A stretch of DNA of 64,000 nt, taken from contig JAIEQL010000014.1 of assembly GCA_019747735.1 (NCBI GenBank), positions 5,101 to 69,100 of the forward strand. The letters run 5' to 3'. The DNA is from Chthoniobacterales bacterium. Its GTDB lineage: Bacteria > Verrucomicrobiota > Verrucomicrobiia > Chthoniobacterales > UBA6821. Position 1 is the stretch's first letter. Each line of letters begins with the position of its first letter. Both the position numbers and the translations under genes were made by a program. Of this stretch, positions 6,391 through 42,200 are shown in pieces. The notes beneath the pieces were generated by a model that had not been told where the DNA came from, made no database searches, and saw only the letters and a list, made by a program, of their open reading frames with translations.

Positions 6391-6451
6391 AATAGGCTTG
6401 AAGATTCTAGATAAAGGGGAAATATTTAATTCCTTTTTTTTCGTAAAAACC

Positions 6452-9400
6452 ATGAAAAATCATTTACTATTACTACTCCTAAGCGCCTGTGCGCTGGCAC
6501 CCTTGCCCGTAAGCGCGATGATAGAAGCGGATAAAAAAGAGGAGCATAAAGAGTCGAGTGATTCAAAAAAAACCCTCGAAAAAAATACCTACGAAACATT
6601 GTTAGAGGCTCAGAAAGCAGCAGCTGAAAGAGTTAACAATCCTGCGGCTAACAACAATACAGAGATTAAGTTCGAAGCGTTTGTTGAGAAGGAAGAGATC
6701 ATCGATGATAACACTCTGAAACCGACTCCCACTGCTGATCCTCAGTCCAACTCGTCACTAGTTGACGCTGATGAAGAAAGTGAAAAGGAAGATCTTTTCG
6801 ATCTCACCACCCTGGAACAAAGAACCCAAGAGGCTCGAGAGATCGTTGCTGATTTAGGAGGAAAAGGACCAGCCATTTCAGAACAAGCACTCCGTGACCT
6901 TTATCACACTTGGTCACAACGCTACCAGCGTTACCAAAAAGCACTTCAAGATCTGCAACAGCAAAGTGAAATTGGTATTGCAGGTGAGCAAATTGAAGAT
7001 CGGCTTGGAGAGTTAGTGAAGGTTTCTCAAAAGGCTCAAGAGGCTCTTGAAACAAGCCTGCGAAGTATTACTCAGGAGCTGACACGTGCTGCTGGCACTA
7101 AAAAATGGGACCCTCTTATTGATGAGAAAAAAACAACTCAAAAAGAAAGAACTCAGGAACAAGAGAAAGAGCTTTTAGAACAAGAAAAAACAACAGCTCT
7201 TAAGCAATTTGAGAAACTTCTGAATGATGTTAATTCTTTGCTTTATGATGATAGGCCTCAGGTTTCCTTAACTTCTTACAAAGAAAAGCACCAACCCTTT
7301 TTTAAAGAGCTAAGAACAGTAGCAGAAAAACAAAAAAGAGCGTATCAGGATCAAGAGCAAAGAGAGGAAACCTCTTCCCTTCTTCATGCTTGGGAAAAAG
7401 TGCTCGAGATGATTCCTGAACTAGAAAAAAATCACAGGGAATGGAAAGAAACTTTTTCTGCTAAAGAAAAAGCCATTGTGGATGCCAATCTCATGATTGC
7501 TTGGAGCTCCTTTCAAGAAGGAATGGCTTACGCCAGAGGAGACAAAGAGAGTGCAGCGCTTTGGGAGAAGAGTGGAGATTTATTGGGGCAAGTGAAAACT
7601 GCTTGGAATCAAAATGAAAAAACAAAAGCAGAGCGATTAAAGAAACAAGCTTGTACCTTGGGCGGTTGGGGAAATTGGCCCGGAGCTGCTTATGCTCACG
7701 GAAAAGCTCGTGAGGCCAGAGCTCGGGGAGATGAGCTTGGAAACCAAGAAGCTGCTCTTTGGGAGAAATCAGCAGAGATTTGGCAAGAACAAGCAGCTGC
7801 CGTAAAAGAAAAAGGAGGTGAAAAACAACCAGACAAATTAATGAAACAAGCTTTTGCCTTGGGCGGTCGGGAAAAATGGCCCGGAGCTGCTTATGCTTAC
7901 GGAAAAGCTCGTGAGGCCAGAGCCTGGGGAGATGAGCTTGGAAACCAAGAAGCTGCTCTTTGGGAGAAATCAGCAGCGATTTATAAAAAACAAGCAGATC
8001 CTTTAGAAAGAGGAGGTGAAAAACAAGCAGCTGCCGTAAAAGAAAAAGATGAAAAACAAGCAGACAAATTAATAAAACAAGCTCTTGCCTTGGGCGGTTG
8101 GGAAGGACTGCCTGGAGCTGCTTATGCTTACGGAAAAGCTCGTGAGGCCAGAGCCCGGAAAGATGAGCTTGGAGACAAAGAAGCTGCTCTTTGGGAGAAG
8201 TCAGCAGAGATTTGGCAAGAACAAGCAGCTGCGTTAGAAAAAGGAGATGAAAAACAAGCAGCTGCCGTAAAAGGAAAAGATGAAAAACAAGCAGAGCTAT
8301 TAAAGAAACAAGCTCTTGCCTTGGGCGGTTCGGAAAATTGTCCCGGAGCTGCTTATGCTTACGGAAAAGCTCGTGAGGCCAGAGCCTGGAAAGATGAGCT
8401 TGGAGACAAAGAAGCCGTTCTTTGGGAGGAAGCAGCAGATCAATTGGCAGCTGGAGATGAAGAGCAAACAGAGCCATTAAAGAAACAAGTTAGTGCTTTA
8501 AATTTAAATAGCAGTTCGGATGGCAGCCCGTTTTATTTTTATAGAAAAGCTCGTGAGGCGAGAGCCTGGGGAGATGAGCTTGGAAAGCAAGAAGCTGCTC
8601 TTTGGGAGCAAGTAGTAGATAAATTGGCAGCTGCTTTACGAGAAGGAGATTCGACCAAAGCAAAGCTATTAAAGGAACAAGCTCTTGCCTTGGGCGGTTT
8701 TGAATGGATGCCCGGAGCTGCTTATGCTTACAGAAAAGCTCGTGAGGCCAAAGCCCAAGGAGATGAGCTTGGGGACAAAGAAGCTGCTCTTTGGGAAAAA
8801 TCAGCTGAGATTTGGAAAAAACAAGCAGCTGCGTTAGAAAAAGGAGATGAAAAACAAGCAGCTGCCGTAAAAGAAAAAGATGAAAAGCAAGCAGAGCTAT
8901 TAAAGAAACAAGCTCTTGCCTTGGGCGGTCACGCAGGCTGTCCCGGAGCTGCTTATGCTTACGGAAAAGCTCGTGAGGCCAGAGCCCGGAAAGATGAGCT
9001 TAGAAAGAAAAAAACTGCTCTTTGGGAGGAGTCAGCTGAGATTTATAAAGAACAAGCAGCTGCTTTAGCAAGAGGAGATGAGCAAAAAGCTATGCGGCTA
9101 TTTCTTCGAGCTGCTTATTTAGAAAATTCTGACTCTTTTATAAAGCACCTTGGAGAAAAAATAGAACAGCAGTTTACAGTGATTGATGAATGTCGCAAAA
9201 AATCTCAAGAAGCAATTGCTGCAGGAAATCAAGAAGAAGGAGGGTGCTGGAATAAGGCTGCTGATGCACTTAATGAAAGTGCAATGAGCTGGACTTATGA
9301 GTCGATTGACTATCATCGGAAGGCCAAGTCAGCAAACGAAAATCCTGCTCTAGTAGCGTTATACGAAAAAGCCATTTTCCAAACCGAAACTGTTGCAGGT

Positions 9401-12400
9401 TTATTAGATAAGTATGCCGAGGCTGTTGTAACCCAAAAGAGCATTCAAGAGTTAGATCAAAAACAAGAAACACTGACTCTCGAAAAAAAACGGTTCTGGG
9501 AATTAAAAGAGCAAATTGGAAAAGAAGAACAGTTAACGCAAGTAAGAGAACAGTTGAGATGGGAAGAGAGAGGTGGCTCGCTATTAGGAAAAGGCAAGGT
9601 AAAATCCAAACAGCATCAATTAAAGGAAGATTCCTACGTCACGAAGCTTCCAGCATCATCGGCAAACGAAGTAACAGATCAACAGGTTGACGAACACGAT
9701 ATCACTGAAAAAATCACGAAGGTAAATGAGGTGCTCTCGCGCTTGGATGGTGCTTATGGGCAAGCCATGACTCTTTATCAAAAAGCAAAACAGACTCGGA
9801 TCAATCGTCATGCTAAAGATCGCTGGAGTGAGGCTGTGTTTGCTTGGAAAGGCCTGCTGGATCAGCTCAACGATGTTGCACAGATGAATGAGGAGGTCAA
9901 AGAGCCCGTTGCTTCTTTGTTGCGCATGCAAGCGAACCAAAAGCGACAAACGAACATGGATGAGTTTTTAAAAAATGAAAAAAAGACTCAAGTGCGTTTG
10001 TTAGAAGCCCAGCTACGCCATGCAGAGAGTCAAGCGCAGGCTCATTTTTACGAGGCGCAGACTACGGTGTTGGATGAACAGAGGCTCCCTTTATTAGAAA
10101 AAGCCGTTCAAAATGCAAAGGAAACAACAGCAGCATGGGAGTTGTTAAAGAAGCATGACGGTTTAGAAATGCCCAACAATCTCATTAACAAAATAGAAGT
10201 AGAACAGCTTCCACATTGGTTGACGGTTCAGAAACCTTACTACGAAGCCCTCTATGCTCATGTTGCGTTTGAAATAGCCAAAACAGCCGCTCTCTTAGCG
10301 CCACTGCAGGAGAAAGAGCATCGTTGGAATGAGGCAATGAGGCAAGGGCAGGAGGCACACACTCTACTAGGTGATAGTGTTGCTCTTTTTCAAAATCAGC
10401 TAAGTCTCGTTGAGGAGACTACAAAGAAGCAGTGGCACTCTGCCTTAAAAAATGTAGAGGAAAAGAGTAATGCTTTAAAAACGTTTTTGAGCGAAGGTGA
10501 ACAGTTAAAAGAAAGTGATATTGCTCAAACAAAGATTCAGCAAGAGGCTTTAGCTCAACTTCCCACTCAGCTCTCCTCAACTGCTTTCGTTGAAAAAAAT
10601 AATCCAGAGCTTGAGGTTAAGGCTGCGACAGGAGCAAAAAAGTCCTCTATTTCTTCTCCACAAGGAGAAAGGACACCACAAAAATACAGTCCCCCACACT
10701 CTTCTCTCCTGCCGTTTTTTGATGAAGTGAAAAAGGACTATCCAGAGGCTGAACTCATTGATCAAAGGGAGTTTTGGCTAGATCCTTGGCAAAGAAAAAC
10801 AGTTTTAATTTTAAAAATTCCGACAGTAACTAAGCAAATTCCAGCATCACGATATCTCCGTGTAGAAAGAATACTCGATACATCTATCAATAGGGCTGAA
10901 CGAAGAGAGATGTATGCTGATGAATTAATTGTCAAACTCAAGGAGGATGAGAATCCTGAAGCGTTCTTAGCTGACATGAAGTCTGAAGTTGACGAGATTG
11001 AGCCTTTTTCTATTTTAAAAAATTCTTATCGTCTCTTGCTCAAAGAGCACTCTTTTGATTCCTTAGAAAAAACCCAAGCAAAAATAAAAGAAAAAAATTT
11101 GCCTGTCATCAGCTGTGCCCCAAATTATTTAGACAAAGAGTTAGTAAGCTTTAATGATCCACAATACCAACAAGGCCATCAGTGGAATCTTGAAAAAATT
11201 GATATGGAAACTGCTTGGGAGCATGTTAGGCCAAGGATGGAGCAGCTCTCTGAGGATCAGTTTCCTGTTGTAGGAATCTTAGATTCTGGAGCTCGTATTT
11301 ATCACGAGGATCTGGAAGGAAATTTTTATGAAGATAGCGAAGGGGGGATCGGTATTGATGGCTTTGATACAAGCGAGCATTGGCCCAGTGATGATCGTGG
11401 TCATGGAAGTATGTGCGCAGGTATCATTGGGGCTATTTGCGATAATGAGAGGGGGATAGCTGGTATTGCTTGGAAAGTAAAATTGATGATTTGTAAAATT
11501 GCTGAACCAAAAAGGCCAGGAGAAGTGGCAACAGTTGACTCAAAAGCACGCGACGATGCTCTACAATGGGCTCTTAACGAGTTTGTAAATAAGAGGCACA
11601 TCAACATTCCTGTTTTTAATTATAGCTATGGATTAAAAGAGCCAATGGCTTTTTATCAGTCAATAATAGACCAGGCTCCTCATGCAATCATTGTGAGGGC
11701 AGCTGGAAACCAAGGTTGTAATAATGACTTTAATTCATCTTGTATTGAAGAGAGCCAATTTCACAAAAATGTCTTAGTCGTTGCTGCCACAGATGAAGAG
11801 GATCAGTTGGCTGCTTTTTTAGACCAAAATGGTCTACCAGTTGGTTCTTCCCATTATGGGCCTGCAACTGTCCATTTGGCTGCGCCAGGGGTTCGTATTA
11901 CAGCTACTGGTGCAGAGAGCAATAATCACTATGATACTTCTCAAGGAACCTCCCTTGCTGCGCCTCATGTAGCAGCTGTATTGGCTTTGATGCAGCCACA
12001 ATTTTCTCATCTTCCTAATTTCAATAATGAATTTTTAATAGATCGCTTACTGGCAACTACTGATAAAATTGACTCTCTTAAAAATAAAACAATCGCAGGA
12101 CGTCTCAATGCTGAAAGGGCAGTAGACTTAAAGCTTCCGCCAGCTATTATTGGCTTTTGGAAAGGGGCAAGTAATGCTGGAACGGAGGCGTATAAAGCAT
12201 TCAACGAGATTCATAGAAAAGAGAGAGACATCTTTTGCGGAGAAAACAAGCTGCTTTTTAGCAATCTACAAGGAGATCAACTTGCTTTTGCTGAGGAACG
12301 CGTTCGCGTAAATGGGCTTTATCAAGAACTTGATCAGCTTTATGAAGAGGCTCTCGATAAAGCTGAGAAAGCAAAAGAAGCATGGGAAAAGTTTTCTCAT

Positions 12401-12718
12401 AATTCCCAGCAACAAGCATCTGCTAATTTGCAAGAACAGACTTATTGGGAGCGTGAACAATCGGATGCGGAGAAGTATATCAGAACTTGGGAAGACAATA
12501 TAAGTAATCAGGAGCTCTGGTATGAATGGGACCAAAGAAGAAGAGCACTAGAAACTCAAGCTCTAGCAATTAAAATGGGAGAGGTTCCCCAAGTATGGGA
12601 TAGAGTGTTAGAGCAGTATAAAACTCTTCAAGATGAGACTCCCCCTAGCATCGGTTCTTTCCATCCTTTTTTAAATGTTTTGCTTGAAAAAAAAGAAATT
12701 CTTCGCAGTGAACCCTAG
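6452..12718 (+). CDS. Giant secreted repeat protein with C-terminal subtilase (peptidase S8) module; paralog 1 of 3
   Basis: ATG at 6452 gives signal peptide MKNHLLLLLLSACALAPLPVSAM (the track TTG start is 6398). It has the shared head block LEQRTQEAREIVADLGGKGPAI, 67/77-aa repeats, an I9-like propeptide (ELIVKLKED..SCAPNYL) and an S8 triad (see domain feature). Confidence 0.9.
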   Translation: MKNHLLLLLLSACALAPLPVSAMIEADKKEEHKESSDSKKTLEKNTYETLLEAQKAAAERVNNPAANNNTEIKFEAFVEKEEIIDDNTLKPTPTADPQSNSSLVDADEESEKEDLFDLTTLEQRTQEAREIVADLGGKGPAISEQALRDLYHTWSQRYQRYQKALQDLQQQSEIGIAGEQIEDRLGELVKVSQKAQEALETSLRSITQELTRAAGTKKWDPLIDEKKTTQKERTQEQEKELLEQEKTTALKQFEKLLNDVNSLLYDDRPQVSLTSYKEKHQPFFKELRTVAEKQKRAYQDQEQREETSSLLHAWEKVLEMIPELEKNHREWKETFSAKEKAIVDANLMIAWSSFQEGMAYARGDKESAALWEKSGDLLGQVKTAWNQNEKTKAERLKKQACTLGGWGNWPGAAYAHGKAREARARGDELGNQEAALWEKSAEIWQEQAAAVKEKGGEKQPDKLMKQAFALGGREKWPGAAYAYGKAREARAWGDELGNQEAALWEKSAAIYKKQADPLERGGEKQAAAVKEKDEKQADKLIKQALALGGWEGLPGAAYAYGKAREARARKDELGDKEAALWEKSAEIWQEQAAALEKGDEKQAAAVKGKDEKQAELLKKQALALGGSENCPGAAYAYGKAREARAWKDELGDKEAVLWEEAADQLAAGDEEQTEPLKKQVSALNLNSSSDGSPFYFYRKAREARAWGDELGKQEAALWEQVVDKLAAALREGDSTKAKLLKEQALALGGFEWMPGAAYAYRKAREAKAQGDELGDKEAALWEKSAEIWKKQAAALEKGDEKQAAAVKEKDEKQAELLKKQALALGGHAGCPGAAYAYGKAREARARKDELRKKKTALWEESAEIYKEQAAALARGDEQKAMRLFLRAAYLENSDSFIKHLGEKIEQQFTVIDECRKKSQEAIAAGNQEEGGCWNKAADALNESAMSWTYESIDYHRKAKSANENPALVALYEKAIFQTETVAGLLDKYAEAVVTQKSIQELDQKQETLTLEKKRFWELKEQIGKEEQLTQVREQLRWEERGGSLLGKGKVKSKQHQLKEDSYVTKLPASSANEVTDQQVDEHDITEKITKVNEVLSRLDGAYGQAMTLYQKAKQTRINRHAKDRWSEAVFAWKGLLDQLNDVAQMNEEVKEPVASLLRMQANQKRQTNMDEFLKNEKKTQVRLLEAQLRHAESQAQAHFYEAQTTVLDEQRLPLLEKAVQNAKETTAAWELLKKHDGLEMPNNLINKIEVEQLPHWLTVQKPYYEALYAHVAFEIAKTAALLAPLQEKEHRWNEAMRQGQEAHTLLGDSVALFQNQLSLVEETTKKQWHSALKNVEEKSNALKTFLSEGEQLKESDIAQTKIQQEALAQLPTQLSSTAFVEKNNPELEVKAATGAKKSSISSPQGERTPQKYSPPHSSLLPFFDEVKKDYPEAELIDQREFWLDPWQRKTVLILKIPTVTKQIPASRYLRVERILDTSINRAERREMYADELIVKLKEDENPEAFLADMKSEVDEIEPFSILKNSYRLLLKEHSFDSLEKTQAKIKEKNLPVISCAPNYLDKELVSFNDPQYQQGHQWNLEKIDMETAWEHVRPRMEQLSEDQFPVVGILDSGARIYHEDLEGNFYEDSEGGIGIDGFDTSEHWPSDDRGHGSMCAGIIGAICDNERGIAGIAWKVKLMICKIAEPKRPGEVATVDSKARDDALQWALNEFVNKRHINIPVFNYSYGLKEPMAFYQSIIDQAPHAIIVRAAGNQGCNNDFNSSCIEESQFHKNVLVVAATDEEDQLAAFLDQNGLPVGSSHYGPATVHLAAPGVRITATGAESNNHYDTSQGTSLAAPHVAAVLALMQPQFSHLPNFNNEFLIDRLLATTDKIDSLKNKTIAGRLNAERAVDLKLPPAIIGFWKGASNAGTEAYKAFNEIHRKERDIFCGENKLLFSNLQGDQLAFAEERVRVNGLYQELDQLYEEALDKAEKAKEAWEKFSHNSQQQASANLQEQTYWEREQSDAEKYIRTWEDNISNQELWYEWDQRRRALETQALAIKMGEVPQVWDRVLEQYKTLQDETPPSIGSFHPFLNVLLEKKEILRSEP
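7540..9120 (+). repeat. In-frame tandem array of 201/231-bp (67/77-aa) repeats inside giant gene 1
   Basis: The landmark cc(c/t)ggagctgcttatgct recurs at 7679, 7880, 8111, 8342, 8711 and 8942. Unit: PGAAYAYGKAREARA.GDELG..EAALWEKSAEIW.EQAAA...GDEKQA..LKKQALALGGW. Confidence 0.9.
11180..12125 (+). other. Subtilase S8 catalytic domain of giant gene 1
   Basis: Asp VVGILDSGARIYHEDL, His DDRGHGSMCAGIIGA, oxyanion Asn VRAAGNQG and Ser SQGTSLAAPHVAAVLALM, all in canonical order. Confidence 0.88.
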
Positions 12719-17704: not shown

Positions 17705-18541
17705 ATGCCTCGCTATCTGGATCCCAAAAGTGATTTTGTTTTTAAAAAAATCTTTGGTCAACATCCCAGGTTGCTTCAAGATTTTCTCAATGCGATCTTA
17801 CCTTTACCTCCGGATTGCGTTATCGAAAGTCTGACTTATCTGCCATCAGAGAATGTTCCCGAGCTTGCTAGTTTTAAAAATTCAATTGTCGATGTTCGTT
17901 GCTTAGATAATCACCAGCGTCACTTTATTGTGGAGATGCAGTTACAGTGGACGAGTGATTTCATGAAGCGCATGTTATTTAATACTGCAGCTACGTATAC
18001 TCGCCAACTTAAGAGAGGAGAAGAATATGAGCAGCTCAGTCCTGTTTACGGAGTAGCGCTTCTTGACGCTACTTTTTCTAAAGAGCAAGAGTGGTTTCAT
18101 CACTATCGCATGACCAACGCTAATGACGGCAGTAAGAATCTAGAAGATATTCAGCTCGTCTTAATAGAACTTCCTAAATTAAAACCGACTAGTATTAGGG
18201 AAAAGAGACTAGCTATTTTGTGGCTCCGCTTTTTAAAAGAGATCAATGAAAAAACAGAGGTGGTTGATCCAAGTCTCTTAGAAGTTGATTCTATCAAGGA
18301 AGCGCTGTCACTTTTGGAAGTGGCTTCCTATAACGAAGCAGAATTGCTTGCTTATGATAAAGGTTGGGATGCTGTGAGTACCGAAAAAACGTTATTAAAT
18401 GGAAGATACAAGGAAGGTAAAGCTGAAGGTAAAGCTGAAATGATCCACAATCTTTATCGAATGGGAGTTCCTCTAGAGCAGATTGTCACAGCCGCTCAAC
18501 TCTCTCATTCGGAAGTGCAAATTATTTTGGAAAAAAAATAA
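17705..18541 (+). CDS. Rpn family recombination-promoting nuclease / putative transposase (PD-(D/E)XK, Transposase_31-like)
   Basis: 278 aa. N-terminus YLDPKSDFVFKKIFGQHPRLLQDFLNAIL and core IVDVRCLDNHQRHFIVEMQ (D...E.Q), typical of this family. Confidence 0.75.
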   Translation: MPRYLDPKSDFVFKKIFGQHPRLLQDFLNAILPLPPDCVIESLTYLPSENVPELASFKNSIVDVRCLDNHQRHFIVEMQLQWTSDFMKRMLFNTAATYTRQLKRGEEYEQLSPVYGVALLDATFSKEQEWFHHYRMTNANDGSKNLEDIQLVLIELPKLKPTSIREKRLAILWLRFLKEINEKTEVVDPSLLEVDSIKEALSLLEVASYNEAELLAYDKGWDAVSTEKTLLNGRYKEGKAEGKAEMIHNLYRMGVPLEQIVTAAQLSHSEVQIILEKK

Positions 18542-18631: not shown

Positions 18632-18716
18632 GCCGGTGTGGCGAAATGGCAGACGCAAGGGACTTAAAATCCCTTTTCGCGAAAGCGGAGTGTGGGTTCG
18701 AGTCCCGCCACCGGCA
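18632..18716 (+). tRNA. tRNA-Leu (anticodon TAA), long variable arm
   Basis: GCCGGTG..AGGGA-CTTAAAA-TCCCT-TTCGCGAAAGCGGA-GTGGGTTCGAGTCCCGC-CACCGGC-A. 85 nt, class II tRNA. Confidence 0.9.
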
Positions 18717-18915: not shown

Positions 18916-21900
18916 TTACTTTTTTTGATTCTTAGCCAGAGCTAGAGCTTCTACCTGCCTTTGAAGCTCACTTGCTTCAGCTTCTTTTTTCTGAGCATCT
19001 TGCCGATAAGATTCAGCTTCTTTGGCGTAAACTTGATGCCACCACCAGGATGTAGCTTCTTTTTGCTTTCCGTTTTTCTCTGCCTCTGCAGCATAGCTGT
19101 AACAATAAGCTGCGTTACCTAATGCCTCTGCTATTTCTTCTTGCAACGCTGCTATAGCTTCATCTCCTTGATTCAATGCCTCTGCTTTTGCTTTCAATGC
19201 TTCTGCTTGAGCTTCGCGAGCTTTCCCAGCTTGAATGAAGAGGTCTCTTGCTTTTTGATCCTTATTTTTCTCTGCCTCTGCAGCATTGCGGTAACAATCA
19301 AGCGCGCAATTGCTCTCTACTAATACCTTTGCTATTTTTTCTTGCAGTGCTGCGGTAACTTCATCTTTTCGACTCAACGCTTCTGCTTGAGCTTCGCGAG
19401 CTTTCCCAGCTTGAATGAAGAGGTCTCTTGCTTTTTGATTTCCTTCTTTCTCTGCCTCTGCTGCAAGGTTATAATAATAGGCTGCCCTTCCTAATGCTTC
19501 TGCTATTTTTTCTTGCAACGCTGCAGTAGCTTTATCTCCTCTATCTAATGCTTCTGCTTGAGCCTCGCTGGCTTTTCCTGCTCGAACATAAAATTCAACT
19601 GCTTTTTCGTTTCCGTGCGATTGTGCTTTAGCGGCCTCAATATAGGCATCTAATGCCTTATCATTTTTCCCTGCTATTGCAGCTGCGATGAGTTCATGGA
19701 GTCTTTTGGCTTTTTCATCTCCCTGAGAGGGAGCTTTCAAGAACTCTTGAAGCTCACTTGCCTCCGCTTCTTTGGCTTGAGCTTTATGCCAGTAGTATTC
19801 AGTATTTCCCTCTGCTGCATATGTGGCTGCGCTGTCACTCCATGGTCCTAATGCCTCTGCTATTTTTTCTTGGATCGCTGCGGTAACTTGATCGCCTCTT
19901 TTCAACGCCTCTATCCGAGCTTCACAAGCCTCTCTCGCTTGCATGTAGAGTTTCGCTGCTTTTTGATTTCCTTTTTGCCCTTCCTTTGCGGCATAGCTGT
20001 AACAATAAACTGCGTTACCTAATGCCTCTGCTATTTCTTCTTGCAACGCTGCTATAGCTTCATCTCCTTGATTCAATGCCTCTGCTTTTGCTTTCAATGC
20101 TTCTGCTTGAGCTTCGCGAGCTTTCCCAGCTTGAATGAAGAGGTCTCTTGCTTTTTGATCCTTATTTTTCTCTGCCTCTGCAGCATTGCGGTAACAATCA
20201 AGCGCGCAATTGCTCTCTACTAATACGTTTGCTATTTTTTCTTGTAACAATGCGATGGTAATTTGCCCTTTTTTCAAGGTCTCTGCTTGAGCTTCACGAG
20301 CTTTTCCTGCTTGGAAGTACAGTTTAGCTACTTCTTGATTCCCTTCTTTCTCTGCCTTTGCGGCATATGTATAATAAGCAGCTGCACCAGCATCATTCCT
20401 GAAGCTGTCACTCCATCCTAATGCTCCAGCTATTCCTAATCCCATGGGTTCAGTAAAAGCATGTTTAGCTTGAGCATGCATTTCAGAAGCTCTTTGGCGA
20501 TATTTTTCCACTCTTTTAGAGCGCATCCATTTTTCTCGTAATTTTGAAAATTCTTCTGGCTGTTCAACACTCTTCGTTCCCCAATCCAAAATCTTTTGGC
20601 GCTCTTTTAATTTTTGAGAACGCTCCTCATAATAAGCGAGAGCTTGTGTTAGAAAGAAGCGAGATAAAAGTGGGCTGGTCTTTTTCTCTAACTCCTTTAA
20701 CGTCCCTTCAATCTTTTCCAAAAAACCTTCTTCGCTTGCTATTGCTTCCTTGTAGGGCTGATCTTCTTCTTCTACTTTTTCATGGTATCTCTCTTGCTCT
20801 GCTAAAGAGAGTTTTTTCCAAGCATTTGAATCTCCACCATGATGCTCTTCTGCTGCTTGATGAATTTTTTGAAAATTCTCTTCCTCAATTCCTTTTTCAA
20901 TATTCTTCCAGATTTGTTCGATACGATTTAAACGCCTATTTTCTTTTTTAAAAAGTTTAAAGGCTTCTTCTTCTCCTTGTAAGACTCCCTGGAGTTGAGC
21001 CTGGTGGCCATGCAAAACAGCTTGGTCTTTAATATAATTTTTTGGATCTTGAAAAATTGCCAATTGCTTTTCAAGTTGTTCTTTACTTGCTTGAACACGT
21101 ACCTCCCAAGCCTTTTCTGCTCCTGGAATTTTTTCTCGAGCAGCACGGAGAGCTTCTTCATAGACTGTTTTTTTATACTCTTGAGCAGCGAGGACTGTTG
21201 TCAGGTTTTCTTCGGAGAAGGCAAATGCATTTTTTGCTTTCTCATCTAATAGTTGCTTTAAGGAGTAACGATAAGGTTCGAGCTGTCTATCGGCTTTTTG
21301 CTCAGGGCTTAAATTCTTCTCTTCTTCAAATCGCTTCCAACGCGTGAGCACAGCACTATCATTTTCTGCTAATTGCTCTAATACTTTTTGAAGGCTTTTT
21401 TCTGGTAGATCCAAGCGAGAGAGAGAATAGCTCTGCTTAGCTTTTTCTCTCCATCGTTTTTCTATCTTTTCTATTTCTTCTTGTTGGCTCTTAAAGTCTG
21501 ATTCAGAAAGTCCTTTCTTTTCTTTAAGAGCCTCTAGGGAGTTTTCCACTTGATTTCGTGCTTCTAGACGTTTCATGAAATCATTCCAATGTGTTTTCAT
21601 GAGCGTAGGATCGACGTAGCTCTTCATTACTTCTTTTTGCTGCTCTTGGAGTGAGAGGTCATCAGCTACTTCTAAAATTTTGAAGATCATCTCTTTTGCT
21701 GAAATGCCAAAGGCTTTTCCTTCTTGTAGAGCTAGCACTTGCCATTCTTCGGTAAGGTTTTTTTCTTCGTAAAAAGTTTTTTGAAATTGTTGCTGAAGGC
21801 TTTCTAAAGTTACTGGCTGGCTCTCTATTGCTCTTTTACTTTTCTGAGTGCCTTGGCTCAGAAAGCTTAAAAAACTTCTTGTTGTAACATCAGTAGGAGT

Positions 21901-23988
21901 TTTTTCTTTTGTCAATGTTGAGTGAGAAAGAATACTTCCTTCCCCTTGCTCTTCAGCAGTTATTTCATGGATGATAAGACGTGCTAAGCGATCTGATTCG
22001 TGGCGGAGTTGTTGTATTTCTTTTCGTTTTTCCCAACGGGATTGTTGCTTCTTAGCCAGCGCTGGATCAGCCAATTGCTGATGCGTCCAGTCTTGATAGG
22101 AAAGATTTCTTTTATTAGGAGTGTCAAAAAGATGTTCGATCTCTTCTTGAGCTTCCCATTGGCGGGCTATTCCAAGCTCTGCTAATTTGCGTTTTGGCCA
22201 CATCGGTTCACGAGAAATCATTACCTGGGAAGTCAAATCATTCTTCTCTTCTTTTGCAAAAAGAAGAGGCCAGTCTTGAAAAGAAGCGTAAGTTAGAAAA
22301 AAAGGAGTACGATCCAGCCTTGTAAAAAGAGGCTCAGGGTAGAGCATGTTGAGTACTGCTTCATCGTGAGAAGGGCCTTCTAGTTCAAGCTCTTCTCCGT
22401 GAACTTGAGTGTCATCTAGCTTAAGGCATTCTTCTTTCCATTGAGCAGCTTCTTCTTTTCTTGAGGCATCTTGATAAGCTTTAAAAATGTAGTAATTGAC
22501 TACTCTCGCTGCCTCATTCAGTAAATCATAATGCTCGTTCCATCCATCTAATCTGGGAAGATATTTTATTTGTGATTTCTTTTCTCGAATTTTGTTAGGA
22601 CTAACTGCTTTTTCTACTTGGTTCAAGTAAAGGTGCCTTATTACCGTGCAAAGCTCATCCCAGCTTTCAAGGATGGCAGCAGTTTCTTGAATGTAGTTGT
22701 GAAGAATAGGTTCTTTAAAATTTTTTTCTAATGATTGAAGTTTTTTTTGAGACACTGAAAGTGTTTCTTTAGTTATTAAAAGAAATTCTCTGGTGTTGCT
22801 CTCAGTAAAATCATTTGCTCTGGCTATGCTATTCCAGGCTTCTTCTACTGGCTTTAGGGTCGCTAGGAGTGCATTAAGCTTGGCACGATTTTCTTTTAAT
22901 AGTTTTTGTTCTTCTTGAGAAAGAGGATCTTCTAGATTACGCTTAAGGATTTCTTGGCTTAAAAAAACAGAAGGATTGTTTCTTAACGCAGGCTTTTCTA
23001 TAAGATGGTAAATGGAACGAGGGTCTTTTTTATCTAGGATAAAGGCCACAACATGTCCTGACACTTCCTGAACAAATTTTTGAGAAGCATAACGCCATAA
23101 CTCAGTAGCATCAGATGCTTCATAAAAAGAAGTGGGTTTATAAAGCCCATGCTCTTTATCTAGCCAGATTCCTCCTGTAGTCATTTCTAAGGTTTTTTTC
23201 TTTCTTTTTGCTGCGTACTTTTTTGCTGCATCACAATTTCCCTCGTAATAACCAGTCCAAAAAACAGCTTCATCAGGGAGCGTCTTAAAATCTTGCTCAT
23301 TCATTTTCTCCTGCCATGTTGGCTCAGGGTGATCGTTTTTTTGTTCTCTGTTGCTACTGCTGTCTTGGTCAACATGAGTAACACGTGTTGCTCCATTTTG
23401 AGTAAGGCTCTCTAAACTTTTCTCGAGCGTCTGTACAAGCTGAAAAGAAGCTTGTACAAGCTCTTTTAGCCGCTCTTCGATTTGCTGCCCTGCAATTGTT
23501 TCAATGTTATTTGATCGTTCAAGAATATCTGCCTCCTCTTTGTAGTGTTCGTATCGATTACTCCATTTTTGATAAAGACTAAGTAATGCTACTTCCTCTA
23601 TTGCTGGCCCTTTTCCACCCAAATCAGTGATGACCTTCTGAGCCTCTTGGATTCTTTGTTCCAGGATGTCTAGGTTCGAAAGATCTTCTTCCATTTCAAA
23701 GGGGGCAGTCTCTTTATCCAGATATTCTGAGGCTGGCTCTTTTATCGAGGTTGATTCCTCTGAGGAGATAGTGCCTTCACTCTTCCAGAGAGCCTTTGTG
23801 GTGCCACCACCATAACTGGGCCCAACATTTTCAATAAGAGCTTTCTCTTCTTGCTGCTTGCTATACTCAGTCTCTTGTTTTTTTGATTCTTCCTTTTTTG
23901 GATCTTCTTCTCTTTCCATCGCGCTCACGCGCAGGGGAGCAAACGCAAGCGCGCTCAGGAGCAAAAGAAGAGGGAATTTTTTCATCAC
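18916..23988 (-). CDS. Giant secreted repeat protein, paralog 3 (shared head module, CD38-like block, C-terminal 60-aa repeats, no protease)
   Basis: 1690 aa. Signal peptide MMKKFPLLLLLSALAFAPLRVSAM, head block LEQRIQEAQKVITDLGGKGPAIEEVALLSLYQKWSNRY, and a C-terminal array of AEAEK..QKA..LFIQAGKAREAQAEAL units. Confidence 0.88.
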   Translation of the reverse strand: MMKKFPLLLLLSALAFAPLRVSAMEREEDPKKEESKKQETEYSKQQEEKALIENVGPSYGGGTTKALWKSEGTISSEESTSIKEPASEYLDKETAPFEMEEDLSNLDILEQRIQEAQKVITDLGGKGPAIEEVALLSLYQKWSNRYEHYKEEADILERSNNIETIAGQQIEERLKELVQASFQLVQTLEKSLESLTQNGATRVTHVDQDSSSNREQKNDHPEPTWQEKMNEQDFKTLPDEAVFWTGYYEGNCDAAKKYAAKRKKKTLEMTTGGIWLDKEHGLYKPTSFYEASDATELWRYASQKFVQEVSGHVVAFILDKKDPRSIYHLIEKPALRNNPSVFLSQEILKRNLEDPLSQEEQKLLKENRAKLNALLATLKPVEEAWNSIARANDFTESNTREFLLITKETLSVSQKKLQSLEKNFKEPILHNYIQETAAILESWDELCTVIRHLYLNQVEKAVSPNKIREKKSQIKYLPRLDGWNEHYDLLNEAARVVNYYIFKAYQDASRKEEAAQWKEECLKLDDTQVHGEELELEGPSHDEAVLNMLYPEPLFTRLDRTPFFLTYASFQDWPLLFAKEEKNDLTSQVMISREPMWPKRKLAELGIARQWEAQEEIEHLFDTPNKRNLSYQDWTHQQLADPALAKKQQSRWEKRKEIQQLRHESDRLARLIIHEITAEEQGEGSILSHSTLTKEKTPTDVTTRSFLSFLSQGTQKSKRAIESQPVTLESLQQQFQKTFYEEKNLTEEWQVLALQEGKAFGISAKEMIFKILEVADDLSLQEQQKEVMKSYVDPTLMKTHWNDFMKRLEARNQVENSLEALKEKKGLSESDFKSQQEEIEKIEKRWREKAKQSYSLSRLDLPEKSLQKVLEQLAENDSAVLTRWKRFEEEKNLSPEQKADRQLEPYRYSLKQLLDEKAKNAFAFSEENLTTVLAAQEYKKTVYEEALRAAREKIPGAEKAWEVRVQASKEQLEKQLAIFQDPKNYIKDQAVLHGHQAQLQGVLQGEEEAFKLFKKENRRLNRIEQIWKNIEKGIEEENFQKIHQAAEEHHGGDSNAWKKLSLAEQERYHEKVEEEDQPYKEAIASEEGFLEKIEGTLKELEKKTSPLLSRFFLTQALAYYEERSQKLKERQKILDWGTKSVEQPEEFSKLREKWMRSKRVEKYRQRASEMHAQAKHAFTEPMGLGIAGALGWSDSFRNDAGAAAYYTYAAKAEKEGNQEVAKLYFQAGKAREAQAETLKKGQITIALLQEKIANVLVESNCALDCYRNAAEAEKNKDQKARDLFIQAGKAREAQAEALKAKAEALNQGDEAIAALQEEIAEALGNAVYCYSYAAKEGQKGNQKAAKLYMQAREACEARIEALKRGDQVTAAIQEKIAEALGPWSDSAATYAAEGNTEYYWHKAQAKEAEASELQEFLKAPSQGDEKAKRLHELIAAAIAGKNDKALDAYIEAAKAQSHGNEKAVEFYVRAGKASEAQAEALDRGDKATAALQEKIAEALGRAAYYYNLAAEAEKEGNQKARDLFIQAGKAREAQAEALSRKDEVTAALQEKIAKVLVESNCALDCYRNAAEAEKNKDQKARDLFIQAGKAREAQAEALKAKAEALNQGDEAIAALQEEIAEALGNAAYCYSYAAEAEKNGKQKEATSWWWHQVYAKEAESYRQDAQKKEAEASELQRQVEALALAKNQKK
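18990..20460 (-). repeat. In-frame array of ~180-bp (about 57-64-aa) repeats at the 3' end of giant gene 3
   Basis: gcttgagcttcgcgagctttcccagcttgaatgaagaggtctcttgc recurs at about 19203, 19383 and 20103. A 255-bp block at 19091..19345 repeats at 19991..20245. Confidence 0.85.
22954..23316 (-). other. Candidate ADP-ribosyl cyclase / CD38-like (NAD glycohydrolase fold) motif block within giant gene 3
   Basis: aa ~237-335: LPDEAVFWTGYYEG..KKKTLEMTTGGIWLD..TELWRYASQKFVQEVSGHVVAFILD..SIYHLIEKPAL. This parallels Aplysia cyclase VMFWSGVYDE..ITLEDTLPGYML..ESFWGMASSSYAHSAEGEVTYMVDG..FFGKYELPNL, which I recalled from memory. Confidence 0.45.
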
Positions 23989-29702: not shown

Positions 29703-29769
29703 TGACAACCGACAACTGACAACCTTTCCTTCAATCGTGCTCCTACAGCCTACAGCCTACAGCCTACAG
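29703..29769 (+). repeat. Two heptanucleotide tandem arrays in the murC-murB leader: (t/c)gacaac x3 and cctacag x4
   Basis: tgacaac cgacaac tgacaac at 29703-29723, and cctacag x4 (perfect) at 29742-29769. The second array is inside the GTG-started ORF but upstream of the alternative TTG start at 29776. Confidence 0.8.
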
Positions 29770-36233: not shown

Positions 36234-39200
36234 ATGAAAAAGCTTCCTCTTCTTTTGCTCCTGAGCGCCTGTGCGCTCGCTCCCCTGCGCGTAAGCGCGA
36301 TGATAGAAGGAGATGAAAAAGAGGGGTATAAAGAGTCGAGTGATTTAAAAAAAACCCTCCAAAAAAATACGAACGAAACATTGTTAGAGGATCAGAAAGC
36401 AGCAGCAGAAAGAGTTAACAATCCTGCGGCTAACAACAATACAGAGATTAAGTTCGAAGCGTTTGTTAAGAAGGAAGAGATCATCCAGGATTCGACTATG
36501 AAATCGTCTCCCAATGCTGATCCTCAACCCAACTCGTCACTAGTTGACGCTGATGAAGAAAGTGAAAACGAAAAGGAAAATCTTTGGGATCTAGACATAC
36601 TAGAACAAAGAACCCAAGAGGCTCGAGAGATCGTTGCTGATTTAGGAGGAAAAGGACCAGCCATTTCAGAACAAGCACTCCGTGACCTTTATCACACTTG
36701 GTCACAACGCTACCAGCGTTACCAAAAAGCACTTCAAGATCTGCAACAGCAAAGTGAAATTGGTATTGCAGGTGAGCAAATTGAAGATCGGCTTGGAGAG
36801 TTAGTGAAGGTTTCTCAAAAGGCTCAAGAGGCTCTTGAAACAAGCCTGCGAAGTATTACTCAGGAGCTGACACGTGCTGCTGGCACTAAAAAATGGGACC
36901 CTCTTATTGATGAGAAAAAAACAACTCAAAAAGAAAGAACTCAGGAGCAAGAGAAAGAACTTTTAGAACAAGAAACAACAACAGCTCTTAAGCAATTTGA
37001 GAAACTTCTGAATGATGGTAGTTCTTTGCTTTATCGTGATAGACCTCAGGTTTCCTTAACTTCTTACCAAGAAAAGTACCAATCCTTTTTTAACGAGTTA
37101 AGAACAGTAGCAGAAAAACAAAAAAAAACGTGTAAGGATCAAGAGCAAAGAGAGGAAACCCCTTCCGTTCTTCATGCTTGGGAAAAAGTGCTCGAGATGA
37201 TTCCTTCACTAGAAAAAAATCATCGGGAATGGAAAGAGACTTTTTCTGCTAAAGAAAAAGCCATTGTAGATGCCAATCTCATGATTGCTTGGAGCTCCTT
37301 TCAAGAAGGAATGGCTTACGCCAGAGGAGAAAAAGAAGCGGCTCTTTGGGAGGAGTCAGCAGAGATTTCGAAACATCGAGCTGCTGCTTTACGAGCAGGA
37401 GATGAAGAGCAAGCAGAGCGATTAAAGAAACCAGCTTATTCCTTGGGCGGTTGGGAAAAATGGCCCGGAGCTGCTTATGCTTACGGAAAAGCTCGTGAGG
37501 CCAGAGCCTGGGGAGATGAGCTTGGGAACCAAGAAGCTGCTCTTTGGGAGGAATCAGCTGCGATTTTGAAAGAGTACGCAGCTGCGTTAGGAAGAGGAGA
37601 TGAGACCCAAGCAGAACGATTAGGCAAACAAGCTTATACCTTGGGCGGTTGGGAAAATTGGCCCGGAGCTGCTTATGCTTACGGAAAAGCTCGTGAGGCC
37701 AGAGCCCAGGGAGATGAGCTTGGAAACAAAGAAGCTGCTCTTTGGGAGGAATCAGCTGCGATTTGGAAAGAACAATCAGCTGCGTTAGCAAAAGGAGATG
37801 AGCCCCAAGCAGAACGATTAAAGAAACAAGCTTATGCCTTGGGCGGTTACGCAGACTGGCCCGGAGCTGCTTATGCTTACGGAAAAGCTCGTGAGGCCAG
37901 AGCTCGAGGAGATGAACTTGGGAATAAAGAAGCCGCTCTTTGGGAGGAGTCAGCAGAGATTTCGAAACATCGAGCTGCTGCTTTACGAGCAGGAGATGAA
38001 GAGCAAGCAGAGAGATTAAAGAAACAAGCTTATGCCTTGGGCGGTTGGAAAAATTGTCCCGGAGCTGCTTATGCTTACGGAAAAGCTCGTGAGGCCAGAG
38101 CTCGAGGAGATGAACTTGGGAATAAAGAAGCCGCTCTTTGGGAGGAGTCAGCTGCGATTTGGAAAGAACAAGCTGCTGCTTTACGAGAAGGAGATGAAAA
38201 GCAAGCAGAGCTATTAAGTAAACAAGCTAATGCTTTAAGTAATAGTACTTCTACTGTGAGTCCGCTTTATTCCTATGAAAAAGCTCGTGAGGCCAGAGCT
38301 CAAGGAGATGAGCTTGGGAACAAAGAAGCTACTCTTTGGGAAGATATAGCAGAGATTTATAAAAAACAAGCTGCTGCCGTAAAAGGAAAAGATGAAAAGC
38401 AAGCAGAGCTATTAAGTAAACAAGCTAATGCTTTAAGTAATAGTACTTCTACTGTGAGTCCGCTTTATTCCTATGAAAAAGCTCGTGAGGCTAGGGCCAA
38501 AGAAGATGAGCTTGGAGAAAAAGAAGCTGCTCTTTGGGAGAAATCAGCAGAGATTTGGAGAGAACGATCAGCTGCGTTAGGAAGAGGAGATGAAGAGCAA
38601 GCAGTCAAATTAAGAAAACAAGCTTATGCCTTAGGTGGTTGGGACAGTTCTAAAGGAGCTGCTTATGCTTATGGAAAAGCTCGTGAGGCTAGAGCCCGGA
38701 AAGATGAGCTTGGAAAAAAAGAAGCTGCTCTTTGGGAAGAGTCAGCTGCGATTTATAAAGAGCAAGCATCTGCGTTAGCAAAAGGAGATGAAAAGCAAGC
38801 AGGGCGATTAAGTAAACAAGCTTATGCTTTAAGTAATAGTACTTCTACTGTGAGTCCGCTTTATTGCTATGGAAAAGCTCGTGAGGCCAAAGCCCAAGGA
38901 GATGAGCTTGGAGAAAAAGAAGCTGCTCTTTGGGAGGAGGCAGCAGAGATTTCGAAAGAGTACGCAGCTGCGTTAGGAAGAGAAGATGGTACTCCCCGAG
39001 CAGAGCAACTAGAGAAACAAACTCTTGCCTTGGGCGGTGGGGCAGATTCGCCTGGAGCCGCTTATGCTTACGGAAAAGCTCGTGAGGCCAGGGCCCGAGG
39101 AGATGAGCTTGGGGAAAAAGAAGCCGCTCTTTGGGAGGAGTCAGCTGCGATTTTGAAAGAGCACGCAGCTGCGTTAGCAAGAGGAGATGGCTCCGAAGCA

Positions 39201-42200
39201 GAGCAATTAAAGAAACAAGCTTATGCCTTGGGCGGTTGTGGAGGATGGCCCGGAGCTGCTTATGCTCACGGAAAAGCTCGTGAGGCGAGAGCCAAAGGAG
39301 ATGAGTTTGGAGAGAAAGAAGCTGCTGCTCTTTGGGAGGAGTTAGCTGCGATTTATAAAGAACAAGCAGCTGTTTTACGAGCAGGAGATGAAAAGCAAGC
39401 AGGGCGATTAGAGAAACAAGCTCTTGCCTTGGGCGGTTGGGGGAAATCGCCCGGAGCTGCTTATGCTTACAGAAAAGCTCGCGAGGCCAGAGCCCAAGGA
39501 GATGAGCTTGGAGAAAAAGAAGCTGCTCTTTGGGAGAAGTCAGCAGAGATTTGGCAAGATCAAGCAGCTGCCGTAAAAGGAAAAGATGAAAAGCAAGCAG
39601 GGCGATTAGAGAAACAAGCTCTTGCCTTGGGCGGTTGGGGAAATTGGCCTGGAGCTGCTTATGCTTACAGAAAAGCTCGTGAGGCCAGGGCCCGGGGAGA
39701 TGAGCTTGGAGACAAAGAAGCTGCTCTTTGGGAGGAGTCAGCAGAGATTTGGAAAGAGTACGCAGCTGCGTTAGGAAGAGGAGATGAAAATCAAGCAGAG
39801 CGGTTAAAGAAACAAGCTTATGCCTTGGGCTGCGGTTGGGCAGATTTGCCCGGAGCCGCTTATGCTTACGGAAAAGCTCGTGAGGCCAGGGCCCGGGGAG
39901 ATGAGCTTGGGGAAAAAGAAGCCGCTCTTTGGGAGGAGTCAGCTGCGATTTTGAAAGAGCACGCAGCTGCGTTAGGAAGAGGAGATGAAAATCAAGCAGA
40001 GCGGTTAAAGAAACAAGCTTATGCCTTGGGCTACGGTTGGGCAGATTTGCTCGGAGCCGCTTATGCTTACGGAAAAGCTCGTGAGGCGAGAGCCAAAGGA
40101 GATGAGTTTGGAGAGAAAGAAGCTGCTGCTCTTTGGGAGGAGGCAGCAGAGATTTGGAAAGAGTACGCAGCTGCGTTAGGAAGAGGAGATGAAAATCAAG
40201 CAGAGCGATTAAAGAAACAAGCTTATGTCTTGGGCGGCGGTTGGGCAAATTCGCCTGGAGCCGCTTATGCTTACGGAAACGCTCGTGAGGCCAGGGCCCG
40301 GAAAGATGAGCTTGGGGACAAAGAAGCTGCTCTTTGGGAGGAGTCAGCAGAGATTTGGAAAGAGCAAGCATCTGTGTTAGCAAAAGGAGATGAAAATCAA
40401 GCAGTGCGATTAAAGAAACAAGCTCTGAAAATAGAAGAGCAAATATATCTGTTGAAACAACATCAGTTAGAGAAAGATGTTGCTATTTTTAAGGCTGCTA
40501 GTGCTGCTAAGGCTTATTACGATGCGAATGAAGAGATTGGAAAGGCTCTTTATTCTACAGAGCCTCATAAACGTGACAGCCTTGAGGAGCATCTTAAAGT
40601 GGCACTTGATGCGCAAAACATTGAAACAAACTCTCAAGGAGACTCAGCTTCAGAACTTAATCTTAAAGAGGAGCTGTATCGTCTTCAAAATGAGGCTGCT
40701 AAAAAAACTAGTAGTGCTATGACTGCTTACCGTCAAGCGTTAGAAACTGGTGAGGAAGGTGACTTATTGGAAGCTTTCAAAAAAGCTGTTGCAACATATG
40801 ATAGTTGGGAAGAGGTTAAAAACTATTGCAATGAACTTAATCATTTAGGAAGTCTTTGGAAAGACTCGCTGGAAGTCGCAAAATGTGAGCTAGCTGCCTG
40901 GACCAGGGCTCTTAACCAGTTTGACCCTCAGCACTCAGAATCACTTAGATTGCCTCCAGAAAGAGATTTGCAAGAATTTCCATTCTCTACTCTTTGTAAA
41001 ACATTTAATACATCTGAATCAGGAATACAAAAAGAGATAAGAATATTAAATACTATGTTCAAATATCCGCTGATTCGAGCAGAAGAAAAATTAAATCGAC
41101 CCATTACTTATATGGTTGCTAATCAGCTGCGGTTAATACAAGGAAAAGAAAACTTAGAAAAATTTTGCAATAATGAAGAAGTTAAAAAATTAGGTAAGCC
41201 AATCAGAAAATCAGAGGACAGCTATTTGTTTGAATTTAATAATGAATTAATCGGATCTCAATTTCCTCCAGATTCACTAGAACGTTTATTAATTGAGCAT
41301 CAGGTGGATTATGTTCCTAATTATATGGTAAGTTTAGAGATGGATTCTGGATCTAACTCTCAAAAAAAAATAAATTTTGGAAATATATTTAAGAATTTTG
41401 TTGATAATCTTTCTGTTGATTCGAAAGAGAAGGCCAGAAGTGCAAATAATACAAAAAAGGAACTTATGGCAAGTGAGTCAAAAGAAAAAAAGCTTCCTCT
41501 ATTAGAGAAAGGGGAGGAAGAGCCTTGGAATCTAAAACATATTCATGCTCCTGAGGCTTGGGAGATTTTAAAAAAAGCAGAAGAAGAAGGGCGTTTAAAT
41601 AATGATGAGATCACTATTGCTTTTATTGATTCGGGAGTTGACATCAGTAAATTCGAGAGGCCAGGGCAAGAAGGTGGAAAAATAATTTATCGCTGTAACT
41701 ATACTGATAAAAAATTAAATGATGATGTATCTGATGGAGCAGGGCATGGTACTGCTTGTATTGAAATAGCTAGCTCTGTTCTTGGACATCAAAAAAATCT
41801 TTCAAAAAAAGTTAATTTTATAGCCTGCAAAATCACTAAGGATCGTTCTTTTGATACTGACAGTTTTTTACAAGCTCTTCAGTGGGCTTGTGAAAAAGGA
41901 GCAAAGATTATTAATATTAGCGCTGGCTGGCATAGGGATAGTACCTTAAATAAGAAAGAACGACATGATAATTTAAAAGAAAAACTTAATAATCTCCCAG
42001 ATAGTCAATATGATGATAAAGACATTGAAGAGGCAATAGAAGAGAATGATAAGAAATGGAATAAAGATGATAAAGAGTTGGATAAAGTATTATTTAATTC
42101 TCTTAATAAAAAAATTATCATTGTTAATTCGGCAGGGAATTTAGGCTTAGATATTAGTCAAGCTAACAATCAACATTACCCTTCTCATTATGAATACAAA

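Follow-up and report, generated by a model that had tools for sequence, protein, structure and literature searches.

Domains of the ADP-ribosyl cyclase (ARC) type were predicted in bacterial polymorphic toxins as Tox-ARC by Zhang et al. (2012), with Imm74 and Imm63 as their usual immunity partners, and Verrucomicrobia were absent from the phyla then listed as carrying them (PMC3482391). In 2025 the bacterial ARC family was characterised both biochemically and structurally in J Biol Chem (PMC12356396, PMC12605009). The prediction and the subsequent characterisation mean that the ARC enzyme itself is already of a known kind. Bacterial CD38-like enzymes have so far been found either as C-terminal warheads of type VI secretion (T6SS), type VII secretion (T7SS) or contact-dependent inhibition (CDI) systems, together with immunity proteins, or as small standalone "Nac" enzymes. 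In this work we describe a third setting, in which an ARC domain with an intact active site lies near the N-terminus of giant helical proteins with a putative Sec export signal. The gene analysed, referred to here as the ARC giant, encodes 1690 amino acids (aa) and is located in a 64,000 nucleotide stretch (the window; positions 5,101 to 69,100 of contig JAIEQL010000014.1) of a metagenome-assembled genome (MAG) of a Chthoniobacterales bacterium. The unusual aspect of the ARC giant is its architecture and not the enzyme.

The best match to the domain of the ARC giant, in both sequence and structure, is Tac1 (PDB 9OUF; Colautti, Kim & Whitney 2025, PMC12356396). The two share a minimal two-lobed ARC core without the extra helices and disulfides of the metazoan enzymes, but the ARC domain of Tac1 sits at the C-terminus (aa 458-602) behind an LXG trafficking domain, is exported by a type VIIb secretion system (T7SSb) and is neutralised by the Imm74-family protein Tci1 encoded next to it, whereas the window protein is of Sec type, carries the domain close to its N-terminus, has no adjacent immunity gene and belongs to a diderm verrucomicrobium. 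PAAR-ARCtox of Pantoea ananatis (PANA_2924; PDB 9RO8; Martinkus et al. 2025, PMC12605009) has the same fold and the same active-site tetrad, and its toxicity to bacteria and yeast comes from depletion of nicotinamide adenine dinucleotide or its phosphate (NAD(P)+); unlike the ARC giant it is a T6SS PAAR fusion with the toxin at the C-terminus and is paired with the immunity protein PANA_2923. Nac1, the "non-toxic ARC" of Actinophytocola oryzae (PMC12356396), resembles the window protein in that it has a Sec signal and lacks both an immunity gene and a toxin system around it, but it is a small standalone enzyme with an alanine at the position of the second active-site glutamate and releases cyclic ADP-ribose (cADPR), while the window protein keeps that glutamate (E268) within a chain of 1690 aa. 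The metazoan enzymes CD38, BST-1 and Aplysia cyclase (PF02267) possess a homologous catalytic core and homologous active-site residues, but at about 250 aa they are larger in the helical N-lobe, are extended at the C-terminus and have conserved disulfides, as compared to about 115 aa and a single cysteine in our domain. The RDTND domain of the Vibrio vulnificus MARTX toxin (PDB 8KA1; PMC11266601) is likewise an internal NADase of a giant secreted toxin, in this case aimed at eukaryotic cells. MARTX toxins are, however, type I secretion system substrates with RTX repeats and a CPD autoprocessing domain, none of which was detected by Pfam in the ARC giant, and our domain is far less like RDTND than like Tac1 or CD38.

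A sequence-only reading of the window had proposed, from signature motifs, an ADP-ribosyl cyclase or CD38-like domain at positions 22954-23316, which correspond to aa 225-345 of the protein, and the peptide strings on which it relied were found at the residues given. Searching aa 197-373 against all PDB sequences with phmmer gave exactly two matches, both of them bacterial ARC enzymes; the best was 9ouf_A, residues 458-602 of Tac1 from Streptococcus parasanguinis (E = 1.7e-11), followed by 9ro8_A, the "ADP-ribosylcyclase toxin" of P. ananatis (E = 1.9e-6). It should be noted that the molecule name of 9OUF in the PDB sequence file is "Ribonuclease", as against the entry title of ADP-ribosyl hydrolase, and annotation transferred by name from this entry would therefore be misleading. 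An exhaustive phmmer search of 1.84 billion cluster representatives identified 472 homologs at E<=1e-3, 58 of which had E<=1e-10. A word-indexed protein search returned nothing for the ARC domain and very little for the family alignments, and no relatives were found by a scan of GTDB representative genomes and JGI metagenomes. A profile was built from alignment A1, composed of 40 sequences headed by the window ARC domain. This profile matched the bacterial enzymes Tac1 (E = 1.1e-16) and ARCtox (E = 1.2e-14) as well as the metazoan Aplysia cyclase (9e-9), porcine CD38 (1.7e-7) and bovine CD38 (9e-7), with matches spanning the whole ARC domain and, in the case of Aplysia cyclase, covering residues 65-191 only. 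The profile alignment agrees with the one set out in the sequence-only reading (FWSG, TLEDT, W..AS, G.V, YELPNL).

The same picture emerged from structure prediction. An AlphaFold2 model from the single sequence was unusable, with a predicted local distance difference test (pLDDT) of 50, and was replaced by one based on alignment A1, which reached a mean pLDDT of 93.3 and a predicted template modelling (pTM) score of 0.87 and contains four strands plus helices. When this model was compared to the PDB with Foldseek, the top 21 matches were exclusively ARC-fold enzymes, with query-normalised TM scores of 0.56-0.73. The list was headed by 9ouf (E = 1.7e-6), 9ro8 (2.8e-6), bovine CD38 (3e-5) and Aplysia cyclase (1e-4), followed by porcine and human CD38 and BST-1; the Vibrio MARTX NADase domain 8ka1 (4.5e-3) came after the ARC enzymes. 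The predicted structure thus has the two lobes of the alpha/beta ARC fold and its four-stranded sheet, and the comparison that had been suggested with CD38 and Aplysia cyclase adds the two bacterial toxins as the best matches. The features which had been listed as caveats, namely the missing disulfide cysteines, the absent N-terminal helical subdomain and the lack of the C-terminal 70 or so residues, match the "minimal core" of the Tac1 type (PMC12356396); since the Tac1 core lacks these metazoan elements too, their absence is a trait of the bacterial family. By sequence, profile and predicted structure, aa ~232-345 of the ARC giant is a minimal bacterial ARC (CD38-like) domain, and the identity first proposed for it holds in all three comparisons.

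The active site of the domain is intact (Table 1). HMMER alignments pair E331, which had been proposed as the catalytic glutamate, with Tac1 E573 and Aplysia E179, the equivalent of CD38 E226, and E268, previously named as a second control residue, with Tac1 E516 and Aplysia E98, the equivalent of CD38 E146. In Tac1 E573 is essential, E516 promotes hydrolysis of the cADPR intermediate and the tryptophans contribute to substrate binding (PMC12356396), while in ARCtox the tetrad W273/E299/W323/E356 is essential (PMC12605009). A glutamate is present in the E268 column in 142 of 152 homologs and in the E331 column in 150 of 152. Every near-invariant position of the 152-sequence alignment is kept in the window domain (T236, G246, E268, T270, G272, G273, L276, W298, S302, G311, E331, P333, L335 and N338), and both these and the active-site residues are unchanged in nine relatives of the giant type whose identity is no more than 31-50%. 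Invariance at this level of divergence indicates purifying selection on the active site and argues for a working enzyme. Retention of all four residues found experimentally to be essential in its relatives suggests that the domain is catalytically competent, and in keeping E268 it is like the hydrolase Tac1 and unlike Nac1.

The ARC domain makes up only a small part of the protein. The open reading frame (ORF) opens with GTG followed by ATG (MMKK...) and is called from the GTG, but since the paralogs begin MKKL... the ATG at 23985 is probably the true start. Both the giant size and the Sec signal reported in the sequence-only reading were confirmed, the latter by eye. The putative signal peptide has no lipobox cysteine and is conserved in the eight leader-bearing proteins of alignment A4. 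It is followed by an acidic region (aa 24-223) which contains a conserved leader domain, and then by the ARC domain and a conserved helical module of about 180 aa. This post-ARC module, whose invariant residues include W385, W443, Y499 and W517, accompanies the ARC domain in every giant-type relative, and searches of Pfam and of PDB sequences gave no match beyond noise; it could act as an in-cis regulator or inhibitor, or as a translocation module. The central region is presumably helical or coiled-coil as judged from its composition. For the Ala-rich repeats at the C-terminus the PDB sequence search likewise returned only noise and Pfam nothing. Within the repeat array a 290 nt segment is duplicated with 97% identity at a spacing of 900 nt (19055-19344 and 19955-20244), which indicates a recent intragenic duplication and is possibly a spot of assembly collapse or expansion. 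In a Pfam scan the ARC giant showed no LXG, PAAR, VgrG, RHS, TPS, RTX or autotransporter domain, and a scan for promoters and terminators gave no useful excess over the shuffled expectation.

Table 1. Features of the ARC giant, its active site and other genes of the window (window coordinates; residue numbers refer to the 1690-aa protein).
Feature	Position	Strand	Basis
ARC giant, whole ORF, 1690 aa	18916..23988	minus	ORF read
Putative Sec-type signal peptide, aa 1-23 (MMKK / FPLLLLLSALAFAPL / RVSA-M)	23920..23988	minus	sequence read by eye; alignment A4
Conserved N-terminal leader domain, aa ~84-197	23398..23739	minus	alignments with subtilase giants and ARC paralogs
Minimal ARC domain (CD38-like, Tox-ARC; ADP-ribosyl cyclase / NAD(P)+ glycohydrolase type), aa 232-345	22954..23295	minus	homology and model
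W244 codon (= CD38 W125, Aplysia W77, ARCtox W273)	23257..23259	minus	alignments; PMC12605009
E268 codon, second active-site Glu (= Tac1 E516, CD38 E146, Aplysia E98)	23185..23187	minus	alignments; PMC12356396
W298 codon (= Tac1 W540, CD38 W189)	23095..23097	minus	alignments
S302 codon (CD38 S193 position)	23083-23085	minus	alignments
E331 codon, essential catalytic Glu by alignment (= Tac1 E573, CD38 E226, Aplysia E179)	22996..22998	minus	alignments; PMC12356396
Conserved post-ARC helical module, aa 346-527 (FLSQ/E..., W385, W443, NYxIFKAY, W517)	22408..22953	minus	family alignments
Central E/K/Q/L-rich region, aa 528-1200	20389..22407	minus	composition
C-terminal array of 7-9 Ala-rich repeats of ~60 aa, aa 1203-1658	19015..20382	minus	
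Related giant, 2106 aa, leader and repeats, Peptidase_S8 near C-terminus instead of ARC	6398..12718	plus	
Related giant, 2194 aa, leader and repeats, Peptidase_S8 near C-terminus instead of ARC	36234..42818	plus	
Rpn-family PD-(D/E)XK recombination-promoting nuclease/transposase gene	17705-18541	plus	
tRNA-Leu(UAA)	18632-18716	plus	
Quinolinate synthase NadA	1929-2852	minus	
MurC (Mur ligase) and MurB (UDP-N-acetylenolpyruvoylglucosamine reductase) fused, single 769-aa ORF	29737-32046	plus	

The distribution of the architecture was addressed by comparing the homologs. Among those listed, 66 are longer proteins that end in the ARC domain, which is the layout of polymorphic toxins, and several of these are annotated as RHS; a further 64 are short. 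In the eight closest homologs (40-55% identity) the ARC domain is N-proximal, in proteins of 805-3078 aa. Five of these eight ARC giants (P0006, P0009, P0010, P0011 and P0012; locus tags K2W99_*) belong to the same MAG as the window, so that together with the window protein there are at least six in this genome. All five match the window protein over aa 1-527, P0006 being co-linear with it throughout. Three other relatives (P0007, P0008 and P0013) have only the ARC domain and post-ARC module in common with it, a cassette corresponding to aa 224-529. P0007 and P0008 lie on contigs of 34% GC from other samples (L001, ENA ERZ27313536, 8.3 kb; L002, Logan SRR23086387, 11.5 kb). There, in an unrelated low-GC organism, the cassette heads a protein of about 3078 aa with no visible signal peptide, and on L001 the homologous gene is split into four frames, pointing to a pseudogene or a sequencing error. 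When the ARC cores of 149 sequences were placed in a neighbour-joining tree, the 10 giant-type domains grouped together to the exclusion of all others. Different layouts are seen in the ARC proteins of a second Chthoniobacterales MAG (ACH346_*). Within the ARC-domain proteins, the cluster of P0096 (90% identity) has members from the eukaryotic transcriptome resources MMETSP and EukProt, which suggests that these are true genes of protists or else stem from bacteria associated with them.

The leader of the ARC giant is not restricted to ARC proteins. Two further giants encoded in the window have the same signal peptide, a leader of about 110 aa and Ala-rich repeats, and each carries an S8 subtilase near the C-terminus. 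The leader is 48-53% identical between the ARC giant and both the two subtilase giants and the ARC paralogs, and the subtilase giants are 70% identical to each other over about 900 aa. The TTG start of the 2106-aa ORF is probably an over-extension, the likely true start being MKNHLLLL at about 6452. P0178, from the same MAG, is one further leader-bearing fragment. These proteins make up a modular family with a constant signal peptide, leader and Ala-rich repeats and differing enzymatic payloads, namely the ARC domain with its post-ARC module in at least six proteins and an S8 subtilase in at least two. The arrangement echoes the logic of polymorphic toxins, albeit without any known trafficking domain, and the occurrence of one leader in giants of both the ARC and the subtilase kind suggests a module for delivery or anchoring that is as yet undescribed.

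The genomic neighbourhood offers no sign of a toxin system. Upstream of the ARC giant and on the same strand lies HemW, while downstream a tRNA-Leu(UAA) and an Rpn/PD-(D/E)XK nuclease are found on the opposite strand, a typical setting of integration or rearrangement hotspots. Beside the giant there is no immunity gene, be it Imm74, Imm63 or another, nor any downstream ORF of at least 60 aa, with the rest of the genome not searched; nor was a secretion system found near it. The surroundings are otherwise of a housekeeping kind and include DsbD, an aldose epimerase, a deoxyhypusine synthase, MurC-MurB, glycogen phosphorylase and CorC, and neighbouring proteins match a Chthoniobacterales MAG exactly (MBX9742489, MBX9742491 and MBX9742492).

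We consider it probable that the ARC domain is an exported NAD(P)+ glycohydrolase which serves as the N-proximal payload of a Sec-exported family of modular giants and acts outside the producer. By analogy with Tac1 and CD38, NAD(P)+ would be bound in the cleft between the two lobes, where W244 and W298 are placed, the nicotinamide-ribosyl bond would be cleaved by means of E331, and the intermediate would be resolved mainly to linear ADP-ribose (ADPR) with the aid of E268. The chain would leave unfolded through Sec and the ARC domain would fold only outside the cytoplasm. We propose that export in an unfolded state keeps the enzyme off the cytoplasmic NAD pool of the producer, and that no immunity gene would therefore be needed; Nac1 provides a precedent for an ARC enzyme with a Sec signal and no immunity gene (PMC12356396). 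Degradation of NAD(P)+ would most likely take place at the surface of the producer, or on or in another cell.

Several observations weigh against this proposal. The Pfam model itself gave a sub-threshold score for the ARC giant (PF02267, E = 0.0099, 15.7 bits against a gathering threshold of 25, profile positions 49-102 of 241), so that the Pfam search suggested at the outset does not by itself recover the domain, although the family profile reaches both Aplysia cyclase and CD38. This model, built on metazoan enzymes, has roughly double the length of the bacterial core, which explains the low score as a matter of its scope rather than of absent homology, and 33 of the 40 A1 members match it individually (E<=0.01). 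The Sec-type signal is judged by eye. No outer-membrane export route was identified for the ARC giant, and Sec in a diderm reaches the periplasm only. Some Sec-secreted NADases still require an immunity protein, as is the case for SPN and IFS of S. pyogenes, and an immunity protein for the ARC giant could be encoded elsewhere in the genome. As to the product, Aplysia cyclase also has the second glutamate (E98) and yet is mainly a cyclase, and the position of CD38 T221 and Aplysia F174, known in CD38 work as a determinant of cyclase versus hydrolase activity, is I326 here; for these reasons a call of ADPR over cADPR is unsafe.

A more ambitious version of the same proposal, which we put forward tentatively and regard as possible rather than probable, joins these elements together. 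The ARC domain would be one interchangeable payload of undescribed Sec-dependent giant modular effectors in a Chthoniobacterales lineage, with signal, leader and Ala-rich helical repeats constant and either the ARC cassette or an S8 subtilase as the variable part; the post-ARC module would take the place of a separate immunity protein, as a regulator in cis or a translocation device, and the targets would be eukaryotic (protist) cells.

The alternative with the best standing, although an unlikely one, is a non-toxic extracellular enzyme similar to Nac1, which would be displayed or released and would convert environmental NAD(P)+ either into a cADPR or ADPR signal or into nicotinamide and ADP-ribose for salvage. 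The Sec signal and the lack of both an immunity gene and a toxin-system context are as in Nac1 (PMC12356396), but E268 is retained and invariant in the giant clade, whereas the alanine of Nac1 at this position is linked to the release of cADPR. The presence of NadA in the window means that the organism probably makes NAD de novo; NAD auxotrophy is thus not suggested, and salvage loses weight accordingly. Nor is it obvious why salvage should call for at least six giant paralogs that vary in their C-terminal regions and have their leader in common with the subtilase giants.

We think it very improbable that the ARC giant is a polymorphic toxin of the classical type, with its immunity gene and a dedicated secretion partner encoded at another place in the genome. 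Such an origin would fit the 66 listed homologs whose ARC domain lies at the C-terminus, several of them annotated as RHS, and the usual partnership of Tox-ARC with Imm74 and Imm63 (PMC3482391). Here, however, the domain is N-proximal and followed by 1345 residues, Pfam detects no LXG, PAAR, VgrG, RHS or TPS/CdiA domain, the ARC domains of the giant type fall in a clade of their own, and downstream there is just the tRNA-Leu and the opposite-strand Rpn nuclease, with no candidate ORF. On this architecture and neighbourhood a classical pair of toxin and adjacent immunity gene was rejected.

Equally hard to sustain is the view that the domain is a degenerate, catalytically dead remnant retained as a structural or binding module. 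Decayed domains are frequent in giant repetitive proteins and the PF02267 score falls below threshold, but the domain retains the four essential residues and all positions that are near-invariant in the family, the active-site positions do not vary across relatives of 31-50% identity, and the AlphaFold2 model is of high confidence; a dead domain was rejected on the conservation of the active site. Chance similarity is ruled out by the phmmer and profile E-values.

What is new in this locus is the combination of an N-proximal position, a Sec-dependent mode, the lack of an adjacent immunity gene, a conserved module without database match, an expansion of paralogs and a leader common to the subtilase giants. 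If the exported payload that we favour is active, NAD(P)+-depleting weaponry, or cADPR and ADPR chemistry, would reach into the Verrucomicrobiota as well, and the ARC core would be seen to be usable with no immunity gene beside it. In that case these giants would provide a natural system for how a dangerous NADase stays silent before export.

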